This document shows, piece after piece, positions 4,361 through 29,437 of a stretch of 64,000 nt of DNA. Under the pieces are notes generated by a model. The model was not told where the DNA came from. It saw nothing but the letters and a program-made list of their open reading frames with translations, and did no database searches. Position 1 is the stretch's first letter, and each line of letters opens with the position of its first letter. The stretch comes from Clostridia bacterium (lineage in GTDB: Bacteria; Bacillota; Clostridia; UMGS1883; UMGS1540), in the NCBI GenBank assembly GCA_045656005.1, contig JAZOQG010000003.1, positions 2,226 through 66,225 of the forward strand, read 5' to 3'. The position numbers and the translations under genes are program-made.

Positions 4361-5229
4361 TTATTTTCTCCGACTAATTTTTTAAGATATTCCATAAATT
4401 CGTCTTTGATGTCATCACGGCGAAGTGCCTGCTCAACAGTGGCCTGCAAAAATCCCATTTTATTACCGACATCATAGCGCTTGCCAATAAAATCATAGGC
4501 ATAAATAGGTTGTTTGGCTGAAAGCATGGAAAGTGCATCTGTAAGCTGAATTTCTCCGCCTGCACCAGGGGTTACATTCTCGAGGCACTCAAAAATTTCA
4601 GGAGTTATGATATATCTTCCCAAAACTGCAATGCGGGAAGGTGCATCTTCTTTTTTTGGTTTTTCAACCATATCCAAAACTCTGTAAACTCGGTCTGAAA
4701 CGGGACCTGGTTTTATGATTCCATATTTTGAAACGTCGTTTTCAGAAACTGTCTGAACACCTAAGATACTGCAGGAATATTTTTCGTAAACGTCAATCAT
4801 CTGTTTAAGGCATGGGGTTTCGCTGTGAACTATATCGTCACCCAAAAGTACTGCAAAAGGCTCATGACCTACAAAAGATTTTGCACAGTGGATGGCATGT
4901 CCGAGTCCGAGTGCCTCTTTTTGTCTTACATAATGAATGTTTGCGAGAGAGGAAATTGGTTCAATCTGCTCTATAAAATCAAATTTACCTGCTCTTTTAA
5001 GCTCGTTTTCAAGCTCGTAGGATTTATCAAAATGGTCCTCAATAGCTCTTTTTCCGCGACCTGTTATAATGAGAATATCCTCAATACCTGATGACGCTGC
5101 CTCCTCAATAATGTATTGCAAAGTAGGAGTGTCAACTATGGGGAGCATTTCCTTCGGAACTGCTTTTGTAGCAGGGAGAAATCTTGTTCCCAGTCCTGCT
5201 GCAGGGATAACCGCTTTTTTGATTTTCAT
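4357..5229 (-). CDS. galU: UTP--glucose-1-phosphate uridylyltransferase
   Basis: N-terminus KKAVIPAAGLGTRFLPATKAVPKEMLPIVD is the canonical GalU signature. Its stop overlaps the ispE start. Confidence 0.85.
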   Translation of the reverse strand: MKIKKAVIPAAGLGTRFLPATKAVPKEMLPIVDTPTLQYIIEEAASSGIEDILIITGRGKRAIEDHFDKSYELENELKRAGKFDFIEQIEPISSLANIHYVRQKEALGLGHAIHCAKSFVGHEPFAVLLGDDIVHSETPCLKQMIDVYEKYSCSILGVQTVSENDVSKYGIIKPGPVSDRVYRVLDMVEKPKKEDAPSRIAVLGRYIITPEIFECLENVTPGAGGEIQLTDALSMLSAKQPIYAYDFIGKRYDVGNKMGFLQATVEQALRRDDIKDEFMEYLKKLVGENK

Positions 5230-5248
5230 AATAACAAATCCTTTCTTT

Positions 5249-5959
5249 TTAATTTATTTTCCAGTCGGGCAACGTATCTTTTATTGCGGTGAAAACTCTT
5301 TCGGAAAGTCCGTGGTTTTCACTATTTAATCTTTTGAGAAGGTTTTTCATATCCTCTCTTTTTGTATTTCCGTCAGCAGGGCATGAGCTTTTTACTGTCG
5401 GAATATCATTTCTGTTCATAAAACCAATAACCTGATGCTCTGTCATATAAATAAGAGGTCTTATCACGTGAATGTCTTTTCTGTCAAGATATGTTACTGG
5501 ACTAAAGCATCCTATTCTGCCTTCATAAAAGAGTGAAAGAAAAAAGGTTTCGATAACATCATCAAAGTGATGGCCGAGTGCCACTTTATTGCATCCATGT
5601 TCTTTTGCGGCATCATGAAGTGCACCGCGGCGAAGTTTTGCACAAAGAGAACAGGGACTTTTTTCCTGCCTTATATCAAAAACTATTTCGGCTATGTTTG
5701 TTTTCTGAATTACAAGGTCTATTCCTGCGTTTTTGAAGCACTCTGTAAGGGGAGAATAGTCCATGCCGGGAAAACCCATATCAAGGCTTATGGGGACTAT
5801 CTCAAATTTTTGCGGATAAAAACGCTTTAAAGCATTAAGACCAAGGGCGAGGGTGCTGCTGTCTTTCCCGCCTGAAATGCCAACGGCAATGCGGTCACCC
5901 TCATTTATCATTTTATAATCATCCACCGCTCGGCGGATATAGCTTAAAACTCTTCTCAA
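5249..5959 (-). CDS. ttcA: TtcA-family PP-loop ATPase (tRNA 2-thiocytidine synthetase-like)
   Basis: PP-loop SGGKDS, a CSLC motif and a second Cys cluster. Length 236 aa. Confidence 0.6.
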   Translation of the reverse strand: MRRVLSYIRRAVDDYKMINEGDRIAVGISGGKDSSTLALGLNALKRFYPQKFEIVPISLDMGFPGMDYSPLTECFKNAGIDLVIQKTNIAEIVFDIRQEKSPCSLCAKLRRGALHDAAKEHGCNKVALGHHFDDVIETFFLSLFYEGRIGCFSPVTYLDRKDIHVIRPLIYMTEHQVIGFMNRNDIPTVKSSCPADGNTKREDMKNLLKRLNSENHGLSERVFTAIKDTLPDWKIN

Positions 5960-5965
5960 TATTCT

Positions 5966-7243
5966 TTACCTCGAAGTCTTTCTTCTGCGTCTGCGTCTCC
6001 TGCGTTGTCTTTTAAAAGAAGAATAAAGAAACCAAGTTACAAATGCAAACACTAAAAGAATATAAAATACTGCTGATTTAAAAAGTTTGTAAATGGGTTT
6101 AAAAATAAAGGCAAGCGGGATTTTTGAATAATCGGAAACAGAAAGCATATCACACTCTCCTACCTTTACTCCGTCATACCAGTATTCCATTCTGCCAAGT
6201 TTTTCACCAAGTTTTACGGGTGCCTTAACAGTTTGTTTTATGTACTCTTTCTTTTCGATTTTCTTGGGGTCTGCGCCTTTTGGTAAAATGAGATTGACAG
6301 TTTGAGACGCAGTTAAAATTGCCTCATCAGAAAAACTGCTTTTTATTGGGATAGAGCTTATTATGTCATCTTTTTTTGCGACAGTATGAGCATCATGGTT
6401 TTCAAAGCCATACTTTAAAAGTTTTTTACTGTCAACAAAAGACGAAGTTTCTGTGTCATCAGGTTTTGCACCTAAAACTGCGGATATATATTTTTCGTTT
6501 CCGCTTTCGGCACATGCAACAAGGCAATAGCCTGCATGGCTTGTATATCCCGTCTTTATTCCTGTTGCATACTGATAATAATATTTTGATTTTTTATCAA
6601 GAAGGTGATTTGTTGAGTGCAAAATGCGTTCCTCGTCCATTTTATTTGTGGGAGGAATGGTGTGTTTTGTCATTTTAACGGCTTCTGCAAAAAATGGAAG
6701 TTTCATTGCATACACTGCGATTTTTGAAAGGTCCTTTGCAGTTGTGTAATGGTTTTCGTCATGAAGTCCGTGGGGGTTTGTAAAATGGGTATTTTCACAT
6801 CCGAGTTCCTTTACTTTTTTGTTCATAAGCTCAACAAAACCTTCTGGGGTTTTGCTTATATATTCTGCGAGAACATTTGCCGCATCATTTGCAGAGGCAA
6901 TTATAAGAGAATAGAGCAAGTTCTCAAAGGACATTTTTTCCCCTTCGGAAAGATTTATTTTACTGCTGTCATATTCTATACTGTTGACAGCATAAAAACT
7001 AGCTGTGAGCATTTCGTTTTTTTCGAGTCCGCCACTTTCAATTGCTAAAATTGCGGTAACAATTTTTGTGGTTGAAGCAGGGTACATCTTTTTATCCGAA
7101 TTTTTTTCAAAAAGAGTAAGCCCTGATTCGCCGTCAACCAAAACTGCTGACGGGGATTTTAATGATATTTCAGCTGAACATACGCAGGTAAACGCAAGGA
7201 TAAATGCCAGAGTGAGTAAAATTATTTTTTTAAAGTAACTCAT
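5966..7243 (-). CDS. D-alanyl-D-alanine carboxypeptidase (serine-type, PBP5/DacF-like)
   Basis: Signal peptide, SxxK motif (ASTTK), C-terminal membrane anchor, then an unusual KRQRRRRRRRRK tail. Confidence 0.75.
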   Translation of the reverse strand: MSYFKKIILLTLAFILAFTCVCSAEISLKSPSAVLVDGESGLTLFEKNSDKKMYPASTTKIVTAILAIESGGLEKNEMLTASFYAVNSIEYDSSKINLSEGEKMSFENLLYSLIIASANDAANVLAEYISKTPEGFVELMNKKVKELGCENTHFTNPHGLHDENHYTTAKDLSKIAVYAMKLPFFAEAVKMTKHTIPPTNKMDEERILHSTNHLLDKKSKYYYQYATGIKTGYTSHAGYCLVACAESGNEKYISAVLGAKPDDTETSSFVDSKKLLKYGFENHDAHTVAKKDDIISSIPIKSSFSDEAILTASQTVNLILPKGADPKKIEKKEYIKQTVKAPVKLGEKLGRMEYWYDGVKVGECDMLSVSDYSKIPLAFIFKPIYKLFKSAVFYILLVFAFVTWFLYSSFKRQRRRRRRRRKTSR

Positions 7244-7301
7244 AAATTGCTCCTATCTTATCGGTAGTAAAAAAGTATATAAGTATTTTTTGTCAAAAGT
7301 G

Positions 7302-7330
7302 TTGAAAAAATTTCTATTATATTATATAAT
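7302..7330 (+). promoter_or_regulatory. Sigma-A type promoter (TTGAAA-17-TATAAT) for comEA / two-component operon
   Basis: ttgaaa 7302-7307, 17-nt spacer, tataat 7325-7330. Confidence 0.5.
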
Positions 7331-7380
7331 ATAACAAAACTTCTGTTGTGGCAAGTAATTTTTTTATTTGAGGATAAATT

Positions 7381-7938
7381 ATGTTAAAAATACTTGAAAA
7401 GTATAAAGAAAAAATTATTTCCATTTCCATTTGCATAATGGTGCTTTTAATACTTGGCATGGTTTCTGCAAATTATTTAAATGAGACGGCAGACAGAAAA
7501 GAGTTGGAAGCGATGCTTTCGGAAAATGACAAAGCGGGAACAATAGAGGTTGAGGTCGGTGGTGAGGTTATAAACCCCGGAAGATACTCTCTTAAAGAAG
7601 GCTCCCGTGTGGGTGATGCCATTGAGGCGGCGGGAGGCTTTACGGAAAATGCAAACAGAAAAATAAACATTGCTTTTTTACTTAGAAATGGAGAAAAAGT
7701 AATTGTTGCGGACAGGGAAAGCGAGCCGAACTCAGGCATTGCATACAAGGTGAATTTAAACACGGCAACGAAATACGAACTTATGTCTATTGACGGCATA
7801 GGAGACAAAACGGCAGAAAGAATATTGGCGTACAGAGATAAAATGGGTGGTTTTTCTTCCCCACAGCAAATAATGGAAGTCAGGGGAATAGGTGAAAAGA
7901 TGTATGATGAAATAAAAAATATTATTGTGACAGAATAA
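7381..7938 (+). CDS. comEA: ComEA-family competence protein (SLBB + tandem helix-hairpin-helix)
   Basis: N-terminal TM segment. C-terminal NLNTATKYELMSIDGIGDKTAERILAYRDKMGGFSSPQQIMEVRGIGEKMYDEI is a HhH_3 domain. Confidence 0.75.
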   Translation: MLKILEKYKEKIISISICIMVLLILGMVSANYLNETADRKELEAMLSENDKAGTIEVEVGGEVINPGRYSLKEGSRVGDAIEAAGGFTENANRKINIAFLLRNGEKVIVADRESEPNSGIAYKVNLNTATKYELMSIDGIGDKTAERILAYRDKMGGFSSPQQIMEVRGIGEKMYDEIKNIIVTE

Positions 7939-25456: not shown

Positions 25457-26158
25457 TCACCCATCACATGCAAATTCATTTCGTATTTTTTCGAGAAGCT
25501 TTTTTTCGATTCTTGAAACCTGCACCTGGCTAATACCAATAATTGCGGAGGTTTCTTTTTGTGTTTTGTCTTTAAAATATCTTAAAAATAAAATTTTTTG
25601 CTCACGTGGCGCAAGAGCATCAAAAACTTTCTTGATAACAAGTTTTTTTGCCGTGTCTTCTGCAAAGTCTCCTTCTGCCATGAGAGTGTCGGCAATGGTC
25701 TGTCCATCGTCATTTTCCTTGTAAATCGAACGAGGTTTTATTGAGGCGGAAAAAGCACTTGTAATTTCTTCGGGTGGTATACCACTTAAAGCGGAAAGTT
25801 CATTGAGAGTAGGTTCTCTTCCATTTTGTTCTTCAAATGCTTTTTTATGGGCATTTACTTTATATAAAACCTCTTTTAAGTGCCGGCTTACCTTTATTAT
25901 CCCGTCATCACGCAGAAAGCGCCTGATTTCACCCATAATAAGAGAAGTGGCGTAAGTTGAGAATGAGAACCCCAGGTCTGCGTTAAAGCGTTTGGAGGCA
26001 TTTATAAGCCCTATTGAGCCTATCTGAACCAAATCCTCATACTCTGCACCTCTTCCTATAAATCTTCTTGCTATGCTATGTACCAGAGCAATATTATCAC
26101 ATATCATGCTTTCAAAATTTTCATTCCCCGAAGTTTTTAAAATTTCGCTTTCTGTCAT
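25457..26158 (-). CDS. sigF: Sporulation sigma factor SigF
   Basis: Sigma-70 regions 2 and 4 (YEDLVQIGSIGLINASKRF; TQKETSAIIGISQVQVSRIEKK). Last gene of a spoIIAA-spoIIAB-sigF arrangement. Confidence 0.85.
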   Translation of the reverse strand: MTESEILKTSGNENFESMICDNIALVHSIARRFIGRGAEYEDLVQIGSIGLINASKRFNADLGFSFSTYATSLIMGEIRRFLRDDGIIKVSRHLKEVLYKVNAHKKAFEEQNGREPTLNELSALSGIPPEEITSAFSASIKPRSIYKENDDGQTIADTLMAEGDFAEDTAKKLVIKKVFDALAPREQKILFLRYFKDKTQKETSAIIGISQVQVSRIEKKLLEKIRNEFACDG

Positions 26159-26160
26159 AG

Positions 26161-26577
26161 CTATAAAATCCTTTTGGTCATTGTAACCTTTGTTCCTTCT
26201 CCGGGTTTTGAAACTACTTTTAAGCTATCCATGAAACTTTCCATAACTGTAAACCCCATCCCGCTTCGTTCCATGTCAGGCTTTGAAGTGTAAAGAGGTG
26301 TCATAGCACGGCGGACATCTTCAATCCCACGTCCTGCATCTGATATTGTTACGCTGAAAATGTTATCTGTAATTGTCATGCTCATTGAAACAACGCCACT
26401 TAAACCTTCATAACCATGAATGATAGCATTTGTAACTGCTTCGCTTACGGCGGTTTTTATATCTGAAAGTGTTTCAAGGGTAGGGTCAAGCGGTGAAACA
26501 AAAGCTGCAGCCGCCATTCTTGCAAAGCACTCATTTTCTGACCTTGATGAAAATTTCAGGGTTGCACTGTTTTTCAT
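26161..26577 (-). CDS. spoIIAB: Anti-sigma F factor SpoIIAB (Ser kinase, HATPase_c)
   Basis: 138 aa with a GHKL ATPase motif region ([19 protein letters not shown]). Confidence 0.85.
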
Positions 26578-26912
26578 ACTGCACCTCCCAAGGCCTCATC
26601 TATGCTTTTGTAAATGGGAATTATTTTGTGTATTCCCGAAAGCACAATTAGTCTTTTGGCGGTGGGGGTGGGGGCAGCTATAAATGTTTTTCCGCCAATG
26701 GCTGAAACTGCTTTATATCTGCCAATAAAAATTCCCAGTCCGCTGCTGTCCATAAATTCAAGTTTTTGTAAATTAAACACAATATTTTTGGTTTTTGCAT
26801 CAGCAAATTTCCTGTCAATATCTTCACGTACAGATGCGGCGTTATGATGGTCAAGTTCTCCGTCAAGGGAAACCAAGAGTGTTTTTCCGCACTTTTTAAA
26901 TCGAAGTTCCAT
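26574..26912 (-). CDS. spoIIAA: Anti-sigma F factor antagonist SpoIIAA (STAS domain)
   Basis: 112-aa STAS protein with the phosphorylatable-Ser context (FMDSSGLGI). Its stop overlaps spoIIAB. Confidence 0.85.
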
Positions 26913-26952: not shown

Positions 26953-27005
26953 ATTCAATGTTTTTTTCATAAATCCTTCGAAGAAAAATGACAACCTTTG
27001 TCGAT
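26953..27005 (-). promoter_or_regulatory. SigH-type promoter (GAAGGATTT-11-ATTGAAT) plus Spo0A-box-like ATCGACA for the spoIIA operon
   Basis: On the minus strand, gaaggattt is the reverse complement of 26971-26979. An 11-nt spacer precedes attgaat (rc of 26953-26959). The 0A-like box tgtcgat lies at 26999-27005. Confidence 0.5.
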
Positions 27006-27112
27006 TGGGAATAATTGCAAATTGACATGCATATTTTTGAAAAAAACTTCAATCTAATTATGTAAACCATTTTTGATTTTTTAAAAACGGCTCTTCTTTT
27101 TATGCCACAAAA

Positions 27113-27209
27113 TTATCCACAGAAAAACGCCCTATTTTAGGGTTATACACCGAGTTATCCACATAATCCACATATATTTTTGTCAGTTACTGTGGAATAT
27201 GTGGATAAC
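27113..27209. promoter_or_regulatory. DnaA-box cluster: three perfect TTATCCACA boxes plus two one-mismatch boxes
   Basis: TTATCCACA at 27113-27121 and 27155-27163. TAATCCACA at 27164-27172. tgtggaata (rc TATTCCACA) at 27191-27199. tgtggataa (rc TTATCCACA) at 27201-27209. Confidence 0.7.
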
Positions 27210-27339
27210 TTAAATAAGCATAAAAACGGCAAAAATTGAGGTTTACAAAATTAGGTTGTATTTTTTGCGGCACATATTTTCAGACCAGAAAAATCGCTCG
27301 ATAAAAAAACCGAAATTACGGCATTTTTTAAAGTTTTTC

Positions 27340-27368
27340 TTGCAAAATTTTACCTAATGTACTATAAT
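27340..27368 (+). promoter_or_regulatory. Sigma-A promoter TTGCAA-17-TATAAT for pgsA
   Basis: ttgcaa 27340-27345, 17-nt spacer, tataat 27363-27368. Confidence 0.5.
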
Positions 27369-27399: not shown

Positions 27400-27951
27400 G
27401 TGAAAAAAGTGAATTTGCCAAATATATTGTCCGTCATACGGCTTTGTATGATTCCTGTTACTGCAGTTTTATTTGCAAAGGAAAAAATAACAGCCGCTGT
27501 TATAATTTTTATTACTGCCTGCCTTACGGACATGCTTGACGGATATATCGCAAGAAAATATAATATGATTACCGATATCGGAAAGGTTTTAGACCCTCTT
27601 GCTGACAAAGGTATGCAAATTACAATGCTGGTGTCAATGGCGGTTTGTGACCTTATGCCCTGGGTGCTTGTTATGCTTTTGTTTTTAAAAGAACTTTTAA
27701 TGTGCATAGGCGGAGCACTTTTATACAAAGCTAATACTGTTATTGCTGCAAACAGCTACGGAAAAATTTCAACTGTTGTAACTTCAAGCTGTGTCGTGCT
27801 TATTCTTTTGCTTCATAACTTCCTGCCACCTTATCTTATGCTTTTTCTGCAATGGCTCCCTGTGGTGTTTGCGTTATATGCATTTATAAGATATACATGT
27901 CTTTTTGTGACTTGGAAGAAAGAAAACAAAATTTTCGGAAAGGAAGCATAA
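27400..27951 (+). CDS. pgsA: CDP-diacylglycerol--glycerol-3-phosphate 3-phosphatidyltransferase
   Basis: CDP-alcohol phosphatidyltransferase motif DMLDGYIARK...G...DPLADK. The 183-aa protein has multiple TM helices. Confidence 0.8.
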   Translation: MKKVNLPNILSVIRLCMIPVTAVLFAKEKITAAVIIFITACLTDMLDGYIARKYNMITDIGKVLDPLADKGMQITMLVSMAVCDLMPWVLVMLLFLKELLMCIGGALLYKANTVIAANSYGKISTVVTSSCVVLILLLHNFLPPYLMLFLQWLPVVFALYAFIRYTCLFVTWKKENKIFGKEA

Positions 27952-28638
27952 ATGAAAGAACATATTTACACTATTGCACTTACTGATGCCCTGGAAGAGG
28001 ACTCGGAGTGCCTTTTATGCAGTATAGAAAAGAAAACTGATGAGGATGCTGTTTCGTATTACACGGGTGCTGCAATGATGGAACCCGACGTAAGGTGTGA
28101 AACGAATAAAAAGGGATTTTGCCCTGTACATTATCAGAAAATGAAGGAAGCGGGCAATACTTTAAGTGTTGCATTAGTGCTTCAGACGAGAATTGCGGAA
28201 ATATCAAAACTTCTTACTTCAGATGAGAAAACGAAAAAAGGAATTTTCGGGAAGAAAAATGAATCTTCGGTAAACGAAGAGGTCTCTTCTGCTATGGGAA
28301 GCTGTGCTGCGTGCGAAAGAGTTTCGGGAAGAATGGAAGACTGCATTGACAATTTTTTATATCTTTTGTCTTCGGAAGATGAATTTAAGAAAAAGTTTTT
28401 TGCTTCTAAGGGACTTTGTATGAAGCATTTTGAAAAAGTGCTTTCAAAAGCACGCGGAAATCTTTATAACGAGCTTGTGAGTTTTCAAAAAAAAGAGATG
28501 GAAAGAATGCTTTCCGAAGTTAACAGATTTATAGAGAAATTTGACTACAGAAATGCAGATATGCCGTGGGAAAATGCAAAGGATGCACCTGATAGGGCAA
28601 TACTCAAATTAAGAGGTGACTATGATGGAAAATTTTAA
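27952..28638 (+). CDS. Hypothetical Cys-motif protein (three CxxC-type pairs). Function unknown.
   Basis: CLLC, C...C, CAAC and C...CMKH motifs in a hydrophilic 228-aa protein. The start abuts the pgsA stop. Confidence 0.4.
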   Translation: MKEHIYTIALTDALEEDSECLLCSIEKKTDEDAVSYYTGAAMMEPDVRCETNKKGFCPVHYQKMKEAGNTLSVALVLQTRIAEISKLLTSDEKTKKGIFGKKNESSVNEEVSSAMGSCAACERVSGRMEDCIDNFLYLLSSEDEFKKKFFASKGLCMKHFEKVLSKARGNLYNELVSFQKKEMERMLSEVNRFIEKFDYRNADMPWENAKDAPDRAILKLRGDYDGKF

Positions 28639-29437
28639 TGAAAATGTACCTGAAAGAGAAAAACGAGGATTTTTTAAAGTTTTTGATATTTGTTTTCACC
28701 GTTTTTCAAAACTTATAGGTGTAAATCTTTTATACACGGTTTGTTCTCTTCCGGTAATACTTATTTACTTTTTGCTTTCATCTGTTATTTCGAGTTCCTT
28801 AATTCCTGTAGGGATTGAAAATTACGAAACAACAGTTTCGGCACTCAGCGGTACCATTGCAATTTTTATATTTATGGCACTTGGAGGAGGACCTTTGGCA
28901 CCTGGATTTATTTATGTTATAAGGAACTTTTGCAGAAGAGAACATTCCTTCGTTGTGAGCGATTTTTTCGAGCATGTTAAAAAGAATTTTAAACAAAGCA
29001 TAGTTGTTTTTCTGATTGATATTTTATTTGTTTTACTTATTCTTTTTAATTTAAATGCAGTATTTACAAACTCCGAAATGTTTTTTGGTTATCATATGCC
29101 TTATGCATTCGTAATGGGTGTAATTTCTGTTTTGTATATTGGGGCAAGGCTTTACCTGTATCCATTGATGGTAACCTTTAAATCACCCCTTAAAACAATT
29201 TTTAAAACCTCGGTACTGCTTTGTATGTTAAAGTTGCCTCAAAGTGTTTTAATGGTTATTTTAACTGCTTTGATATTTTATGCAGTGTCGCTATTACCGT
29301 TTGTGTTTTTTGCTTTTTTTGTTACACCAATATTTTTAATATCTTTTACAGGTGTTATTAATATGGTGTTTGCCTATGAAATTATAAAGAAAAATATAGC
29401 AATGGACAACGAAAATTACGAAAACAAGCCGTTTTAG
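28622..29437 (+). CDS. DUF624/YesL-like integral membrane protein
   Basis: Polytopic membrane protein beginning MENFNENVPEREKRGFFKVFDICFHRF. It overlaps the upstream gene by about 17 nt, which suggests translational coupling. Confidence 0.5.
   Translation: MMENFNENVPEREKRGFFKVFDICFHRFSKLIGVNLLYTVCSLPVILIYFLLSSVISSSLIPVGIENYETTVSALSGTIAIFIFMALGGGPLAPGFIYVIRNFCRREHSFVVSDFFEHVKKNFKQSIVVFLIDILFVLLILFNLNAVFTNSEMFFGYHMPYAFVMGVISVLYIGARLYLYPLMVTFKSPLKTIFKTSVLLCMLKLPQSVLMVILTALIFYAVSLLPFVFFAFFVTPIFLISFTGVINMVFAYEIIKKNIAMDNENYENKPF

Follow-up and report, generated by a model that had tools for sequence, protein, structure and literature searches.

What is a cluster of DnaA boxes doing between a spoIIA operon and a pgsA-like gene, and to which of the two, if to either, does it belong? 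The question is raised by a stretch of 64,000 nucleotides of clostridial DNA (64 kb, called the window here, always at its full length). Spore formers must have exactly two complete chromosomes at asymmetric division, and to our knowledge the coupling of replication and sporulation in Clostridia is poorly understood. In Bacillus, DnaA enforces chromosome status indirectly, through sda (PMC4285326, PMC8203912). The reading put forward here is that the window carries a lineage-specific, origin-external cluster of DnaA boxes, a putative binding site, for which the chances of being part of the upstream control of spoIIA are about even. The material consists of contigs derived from metagenomes (uncultured MAGs), and the results are inferred from sequence.

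The genes and promoters that frame the cluster are the following:

25457-26158, minus strand: sigF (NCBIfam TIGR02885)
26161-26577, minus strand: spoIIAB (NCBIfam TIGR01925)
26574-26912, minus strand: spoIIAA (NCBIfam TIGR02886)
25457-26912, minus strand: the spoIIAA-spoIIAB-sigF operon, the gene set that accompanies the DnaA-box module
26953-26979, minus strand: SigH-type spoIIA promoter (GAAGGATTT, 26979 to 26971; 11-nt spacer; ATTGAAT, 26959 to 26953)
26997-27004, minus strand: Spo0A-type box, TTTGTCGA, which reads TCGACAAA on the spoIIA strand
27340-27368, plus strand: sigma-A-type promoter of the divergent pgsA-DUF6062-DUF624 operon (TTGCAA, 17 nt, TATAAT)
27400-27951, plus strand: pgsA-like CDP-alcohol phosphatidyltransferase gene (NCBIfam)

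A preliminary description of this DNA had claimed a SigH-type promoter and a Spo0A-like box for spoIIA. Both are present on the minus strand and both are kept in the alignment columns of the relatives: eight of the nine positions of the Spo0A box are invariant in an eight-sequence alignment, and the distance from this box to the -35 core is a constant 18 nt in every relative. The core motif of a Spo0A box is TGTCGAA, of which Spo0A requires C4 and G5 (PMC3485338). The cluster had also been placed upstream of a divergent pgsA promoter, and such a promoter could be located; it is probably a neighbour that lies outside the module. The boxes overlap neither promoter. They sit 134-229 bp upstream of the -35 element of spoIIA, and in this they differ from the boxes of DnaA-regulated promoters of the sda, dnaA and ywlC type, which overlap or adjoin the core promoter, and from those of repressed B. 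subtilis targets.

Boxes and arms of the module

The elements between the two promoters are best given one by one, with their conservation in the relatives described below:

27057-27252, no strand: the conserved module in full (left arm through right arm, 196 bp)
27056-27068, minus strand: left arm, GGTTTACATAATT on the minus strand; 11 of 13 positions invariant in 8 relatives
27113-27121, plus strand: DnaA box 1, TTATCCACA, perfect; 8 of 9 positions invariant
27143-27151, plus strand: weak DnaA box, TTATACACC, one mismatch to TTATNCACA; 6 of 9 invariant
27155-27163, plus strand: DnaA box 2, TTATCCACA, perfect; 8 of 9 invariant
27164-27172, plus strand: DnaA box 3, TAATCCACA, one mismatch, abutting box 2; 7 of 9 invariant
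27191-27199, minus strand: "box 4", the fifth box of the preliminary description, TATTCCACA, two mismatches; 2 of 9 invariant, degenerate
27200-27208, minus strand: DnaA box 5, a perfect TTATCCACA in the opposite orientation to boxes 1-3; 8 of 9 invariant
27240-27252, plus strand: right arm, GGTTTACAAAATT; 12 of 13 positions invariant

Could such a cluster have arisen by chance? The 64-kb window holds exactly three perfect copies of TTATCCACA, at 27113 (+), 27155 (+) and 27200 (-), where dinucleotide-preserving shuffles give an expectation of 0.67 per 64 kb; a Poisson estimate from the shuffle rate gives a probability of about 1e-5 that some 97-bp stretch of the window would contain three of them. 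A chance origin of the cluster is excluded, because all three perfect boxes of the 64 kb fall within 96 bp.

As for the number of boxes, the three perfect ones reported earlier stand, as does one of the two that had been reported with a single mismatch (TAATCCACA, 27164). The other, box 4, has two mismatches, and it is not conserved in the relatives. The earlier list lacked the conserved weak box, which lies 3 bp from box 2 and reads TTATACACA in two of the relatives (L091 and L095). Box 3 is itself perfect in L088 and L092. Boxes 4 and 5 mirror boxes 2 and 3: the two pairs make up an inverted repeat of 20 nt, whose spacer measures 18 nt.

Would DnaA bind here? In B. subtilis, the eight stably DnaA-bound regions are exactly those in which A exceeds 0.3, where A is obtained by adding up the affinities of four boxes in a row and dividing the sum by the mean spacing (Ishikawa et al., PMC2533591). 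A cluster was accordingly defined as at least four closely spaced boxes within one mismatch of TTATNCACA with A > 0.3, a B. subtilis criterion applied to clostridial DNA. The two four-box sets in 27113-27208 reach A = 0.59 and 0.53, and the rest of the 64-kb window stays at A ≤0.02, apart from sets that include some of these boxes. In the relatives that keep the spoIIAA-pgsA arrangement A is 0.34-0.87. By box number and A score alike, then, the window cluster is one of the B. subtilis origin-external type. The residues with which DnaA reads its boxes are conserved in Clostridia (PMC7561715). It is predicted that DnaA binds the cluster, and this is very probable.

The boxes do not stand alone. 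On either side of them lies one copy of the motif GGTTTACAWAATT, the two copies forming an inverted pair: the left-arm block AATTATGTAAACC is exactly 44 nt to the left of box 1, and the right arm begins exactly 31 nt after box 5, a spacing constant in all relatives. From arm to arm the module measures 196 bp in nine of the ten distinct loci; L095, at 197 bp, is the exception. The invariant arms and the constant length are, as the alignments have it, the signature of a fixed-geometry protein-DNA complex, in which some factor other than DnaA is probably involved at the arms. Which site could the arms be? They resemble no protein site that could be named. As sigma-A promoters they fail, since the alignments of the relatives show no second hexamer conserved at a distance of 16-18 nt. 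As Spo0A boxes they fail too: their TGTAAAC is without the C4 and G5 that Spo0A needs (PMC3485338). Nor are they a regulon motif, for the window and the related loci hold no other exact copy, except for one stray copy in L094.

Conservation, and the question of an origin

Nine further distinct loci were gathered through PgsA homologues and exact-protein look-ups. Their PgsA proteins are 56-97% identical to that of the window, their SigF proteins down to 46%, and SpoIIAB identity within the clade is 63-91%. In all ten distinct members, including L220 with its different neighbour on the other side, the module lies upstream of spoIIAA. The start-to-start spacing of the boxes is identical in all relatives (42 nt from box 1 to box 2, 9 nt to box 3, 36 nt to box 5), and this strong conservation answers the earlier proposal to look for the boxes in relatives. 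The spacers are saturated with changes: in the eight-sequence alignment the invariant positions number 0 of 44 between left arm and box 1, and 6 of 21, 3 of 18 and 5 of 31 in the other spacers. The boxes are thus conserved with a candidate target gene across species, as are those of sda, dnaA and ywlC.

How far does the module extend beyond these loci? It was compared with 80 diverse Firmicute spoIIA loci, whose SpoIIAB proteins are 52-66% identical to that of the window, a range that overlaps the one within the clade. A perfect box upstream of spoIIAA is missing from all 80, and so is a pgsA nearby; in the 74 loci whose upstream sequence extends to 400 nt or more, the maximum A is ≤0.01, with no cluster. 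These 74 rule out the cluster as a general feature of spoIIA. Because the spoIIA loci compared from outside the clade are without it, the cluster is, by this comparison, an evolutionary novelty of a single clade of uncultured Clostridia. Species-specific clusters of DnaA boxes are indeed to be expected (PMC3245932, PMC2533591).

A cluster of DnaA boxes brings to mind an origin of replication, and the simplest objection to the preliminary description was that a dnaA-dnaN pair might lie next door, the cluster being simply oriC. This is not the case: with clostridial DnaA and DnaN queries the best tblastn match in the window has E = 0.06, the ORF lists agree, and neither gene is found from 27 kb before to 37 kb after the cluster, nor in 12 related loci. 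The statement that the cluster is far from any dnaA thus holds, as far as the window and these loci reach. There is no GC-skew switch at the site, the skew being positive on both sides, and next to the boxes there is neither an array of three or more DnaA-trios nor a GC cluster nor an AT tract that stands out; the most AT-rich 27-mer is at the pgsA promoter. With no dnaA or dnaN, no skew switch and no DnaA-trios, the site is therefore not oriC, nor a secondary origin.

Related to this is whether the module could be the relic of an origin, a mobile element (MITE) or an invertible switch bounded by inverted repeats. The boxes are in fact flanked by 27-nt inverted repeats that are 85% complementary, and single-strand folding of the module is strong (z = -6.5). 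Against such readings stand the missing marks of an origin and an arm motif that has no other copy in the window, and the position of the module, which is orthologous and in the same orientation in all 15 assemblies (10 distinct sequences), with no recombinase gene beside it and no conserved promoter inside it. A switch or MITE is rejected on the last grounds, and this group of readings as a whole is very improbable. The strong folding also raises the question of a structured RNA or riboswitch. Neither is retained, because covariation is lacking (the covariation term is an unfavourable +1.31, the paired columns being invariant) and because a search of the module against Rfam returned sub-threshold hairpin matches only and no family.

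Two observations on origins may be added. At about 6-7.3 kb in the window (5966-7938) both the GC skew and the orientation of the genes switch, between a minus-strand D-Ala-D-Ala carboxypeptidase-like ORF, which ends in RQRRRRRRRRKTSR, and a plus-strand comEA-like ORF. This region is probably not oriC, because it holds a single one-mismatch DnaA box (7369-7377). In the most distant relatives with the spoIIAA-pgsA arrangement (L095/L096:1213-4027), the neighbours of the spoIIA operon are holB, a PSP1/yaaT-like gene and a gene for a c-di-AMP receptor. Genes of these three kinds are origin-proximal in B. subtilis, which hints that the module may be origin-proximal in some members of the clade.

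The partner operon and a possible mode of action

The module lies between two divergent operons: which of them does it serve? One possibility is that it regulates the pgsA-DUF6062-DUF624 operon, alone or together with spoIIA, and so ties acidic phospholipid synthesis to DnaA. It does lie upstream of a conserved sigma-A promoter in nine of the ten loci, and E. coli DnaA is reactivated by acidic phospholipids (PMC3645759, PMC3535390). The arrangement of the more distant loci speaks against it. L097 and L098 (PgsA 51% and 49% identical) keep the pgsA operon with no spoIIA adjacent, and upstream of their pgsA there is no cluster (A ≤0.1). Conversely, in L220 (SpoIIAA 58% identical) the spoIIA operon follows mgtE, there is no pgsA, and the whole module persists upstream of spoIIAA, aligning without gaps from arm to arm. 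Its boxes, TTTTCCACA, TTATCCACA, CTTTCCACA and TTTTCCACA, are weaker, with A = 0.05 under TTATNCACA, and TTTTCCACA fits the relaxed consensus TTWTNCACA. In L094, the first gene on the pgsA side is a fumarate hydratase gene, and the genes downstream of sigF vary among the loci. Through all these changes, spoIIA alone stays with the module. This association rests on one spoIIA-only and two pgsA-only loci, which may go back to a single ancestral rearrangement.

Some minor features of these loci are worth recording. The pgsA-DUF6062-DUF624 operon, whose last product is a YesL-like membrane protein (27400-29437 in the window), remains conserved at PgsA identities as low as 49%, also in loci where no spoIIA adjoins it. 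The additional gene in L094 (5459-6010), which lies between the DnaA module and pgsA, encodes a fumarate hydratase beta-subunit (Fumerase_C), and in the same locus a spurious 79-aa ORF has been called across the boxes (5012-5251).

The distances between the module and the two promoters point in the same direction as the gene order. Between the Spo0A box and the module lie 19, 29, 30, 40, 52, 86 or 88 nt. In a test of 5-7 values against random linkers, these lengths gather on one phase of a period near 11.4 bp (R = 0.90, P = 0.0035); the period was fitted, with the maximum taken within 10-11.5 bp. When each clade contributes a single value, P is 0.013. A value of about 11 bp is the helical repeat seen in vivo in looping assays. 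On the other side, the sigma-A promoter lies 59, 87, 88, 92, 158 or 181 nt away from the right arm, with no helical phasing (P = 0.54). The phasing lends moderate support, moderate because the sample is small, to a physical interaction of the module with the promoter complex of spoIIA. Control of the pgsA operon is, all things considered, improbable. A link to spoIIA is favoured both over a link to pgsA and over a free-standing reservoir, because L220 keeps the module, L097 and L098 are without it, and a register is kept with the Spo0A box only.

The reservoir deserves a closer look. The cluster might be no more than a site that titrates DnaA or controls its activity, like the origin-external clusters of B. 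subtilis or datA and DARS of E. coli, its place beside spoIIA being historical. With its fixed geometry and the candidate auxiliary sites at its flanks, the module calls to mind datA and DARS2 and their IHF and Fis sites; it shares with them a few DnaA boxes in mixed orientation and conserved sites at a fixed distance, a layout that suggests a defined higher-order complex. There is no sequence homology between them, the module is tied to a promoter, and, as far as we know, IHF and Fis are not Firmicute proteins. It also fits titration that the cluster passes the A > 0.3 threshold, that its boxes stay clear of both promoters, and that B. subtilis clusters of this kind lower the frequency of initiation even when they are moved (PMC3245932). 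However, such clusters adjoin different genes in different species (PMC3245932, PMC2533591), whereas the module has stayed with spoIIA down to a SigF identity of 46% and through changes of both neighbouring genes, and a pure sink would not need the helical register with the Spo0A box. Titration as the whole explanation is therefore rather unlikely, and the same low probability is given to a titration role of any kind, be it the sole one or one alongside regulation.

If the module acts on spoIIA, how might it do so? Consensus boxes 1, 2 and 5 would be the high-affinity anchors of DnaA. The weak box, 3 bp from box 2, and box 3, which abuts it, would be filled cooperatively when active DnaA is abundant, as one may suppose because E. 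coli and B. subtilis behave in this way; E. coli DnaA prefers closely spaced pairs of sites (PMC11317965). The GGTTTACAWAATT arms, at their fixed distances, would bind a putative partner protein, or complete the complex in some other way. The resulting 196-bp nucleoprotein unit would keep a constant helical face towards the Spo0A box and the SigH promoter, and would in this way modulate the transcription of spoIIA that depends on Spo0A~P and SigH. The favoured sign, a best guess, is that spoIIA would be dampened as long as DnaA is competent for initiation, and that sigma-F would then be made only if replication status permits, as in the DnaA-Sda checkpoint of Bacillus; dampening is preferred because of the analogy with that checkpoint (PMC4285326).

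These propositions are not equally firm. Regulation of spoIIA by the cluster is evenly balanced between true and false. That the sign is repression is a tentative suggestion, which leans on the Bacillus analogy, and the helically phased 196-bp complex of DnaA and a putative arm-binding protein, gating the sigma-F operon directly, is likewise a doubtful if possible one. The module may well be a direct link between chromosome replication and the commitment to sporulation.

What in all this is already known, and what is new? Origin-external clusters of DnaA boxes are known, and so is DnaA as a transcription factor linked to sporulation; the new element is a cluster tied to the sigma-F operon. Among the papers of the library searched in full text, none joins DnaA boxes with spoIIA. 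With the origin-external clusters of B. subtilis the module shares its intergenic position, at least four boxes, several of them perfect copies of TTATCCACA, A > 0.3 and a location away from dnaA; with the regulatory clusters among them (sda, ywlC, yydA) it shares conservation together with a neighbouring gene. In contrast to the B. subtilis clusters, it belongs to a clostridial lineage and adjoins spoIIA, which is absent from the list of the B. subtilis DnaA regulon (PMC8203912), and it has two invariant inverted flanking motifs and a fixed length of 196 bp, features not described for the clusters of Bacillus.

The closest parallel in function would be the DnaA-sda checkpoint, where, as would be the case here, DnaA acts as a transcription factor that couples the status of replication initiation to the entry into sporulation. 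In Bacillus, the DnaA boxes are at the sda promoter, and Sda blocks KinA and KinB, so that the action is indirect and upstream of Spo0A. The boxes of the module, on the other hand, lie directly upstream of the promoter of the sigma-F operon, downstream of Spo0A in the pathway. A module tied to spoIIA and in phase with its promoter gives a concrete hypothesis: DnaA would act directly on the sigma-F operon. If true, replication would be checked directly at the first compartment-specific sigma factor, a task that in Bacillus falls to the Sda route, upstream of Spo0A. The arms and the strict 196-bp length stand out in the comparison, and the invariance of the former points to a further partner of DnaA at origin-external sites.

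Similar box arrangements elsewhere in Clostridia

Another question concerns the protein that reads the boxes: is it truly DnaA? Metagenomes were scanned with the pattern TCCACNTNNTCCACAT-N23-27-ATGTGGA, and at least 120 loci matched. The core arrangement, two abutting head-to-tail boxes, about 25 nt and one inverted box, recurs in them, and the Pfam contexts of representative matches are dnaA-dnaN (oriC2), murC followed by a gene with a DnaB_2 domain (dnaD/dnaB-like), and a hydrolase gene facing rsmG-mnmG. In B. subtilis, rsmG is in an operon known to be regulated by DnaA (PMC8203912). Because the same core arrangement occurs at known DnaA target genes, the scan supports the prediction that the boxes of the window are true DnaA sites. 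The modules of these three contexts share the core arrangement with the spoIIA module and differ from it in their genes. In the first 80 of the at least 120 matched loci, tblastn found neither spoIIA nor pgsA nearby; the other 40 matches listed are of the same core types and have no arm motifs. Among the matches listed there is no further copy of the spoIIA element and no pair of arms at 196 bp.

These data also bear on the reading in which the conserved 9-mers are bound by another protein, Spo0A or some other regulator, and DnaA is not involved. Read on the opposite strand, a DnaA box looks much like a Spo0A box, and Spo0A boxes overlap DnaA boxes in the oriC of B. subtilis. The arms, with their probable non-DnaA factor, would also agree with another binder, and so would the sequence TGTGGAA at 27192-27198, which is one mismatch from TGNCGAA and reads TGGCGAA or TGTCGCA in relatives. 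But conservation extends over all nine positions of TTATCCACA, including its TTA, for which a Spo0A site has no need, and the boxes are without C4, where Spo0A requires both C4 and G5 of TGTCGAA (PMC3485338); moreover, dnaA-dnaN and other DnaA targets have boxes in an identical layout. That DnaA plays no part is hence quite improbable, even a little more so than control of the pgsA operon.

DnaA remaining the predicted reader of the boxes, a Spo0A site may still be embedded in its module. The column of box 4 is within one mismatch of TGNCGAA in several relatives: it reads TGTGGAA in the window, TGGCGAA in L088, TGGCGGA in L091 and TGTCGCA in L095. This is offered as a lead.

Two of the other box arrangements have features of their own. 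In many gut Clostridia, the one behind murC (TTATCCACWTTATCCACAT, about 25 nt, ATGTGGAT) begins directly after the murC stop codon (L144:7716-7770; likewise in L173, L169, L116, L130, L135, L122 and L103) and lies about 270 nt upstream of the dnaD/dnaB-like gene with the DnaB_2 domain. Its inverted boxes, together with a run of T, resemble a terminator hairpin of murC, and a second run of two to three tandem boxes is found about 190 nt beyond it. Several of these murC-dnaD modules have GTTTACATAA about 7 nt past the inverted box, a sequence that resembles the arm motif of the window. The other arrangement consists of perfect palindromic double-tandem DnaA boxes between an alpha/beta-hydrolase gene and rsmG-mnmG (L150:3245-3304, L100:6627-6686, L161:1232-1291 and L159:2866-2925), and it parallels the B. 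subtilis cluster near trmEF-rsmG-noc.
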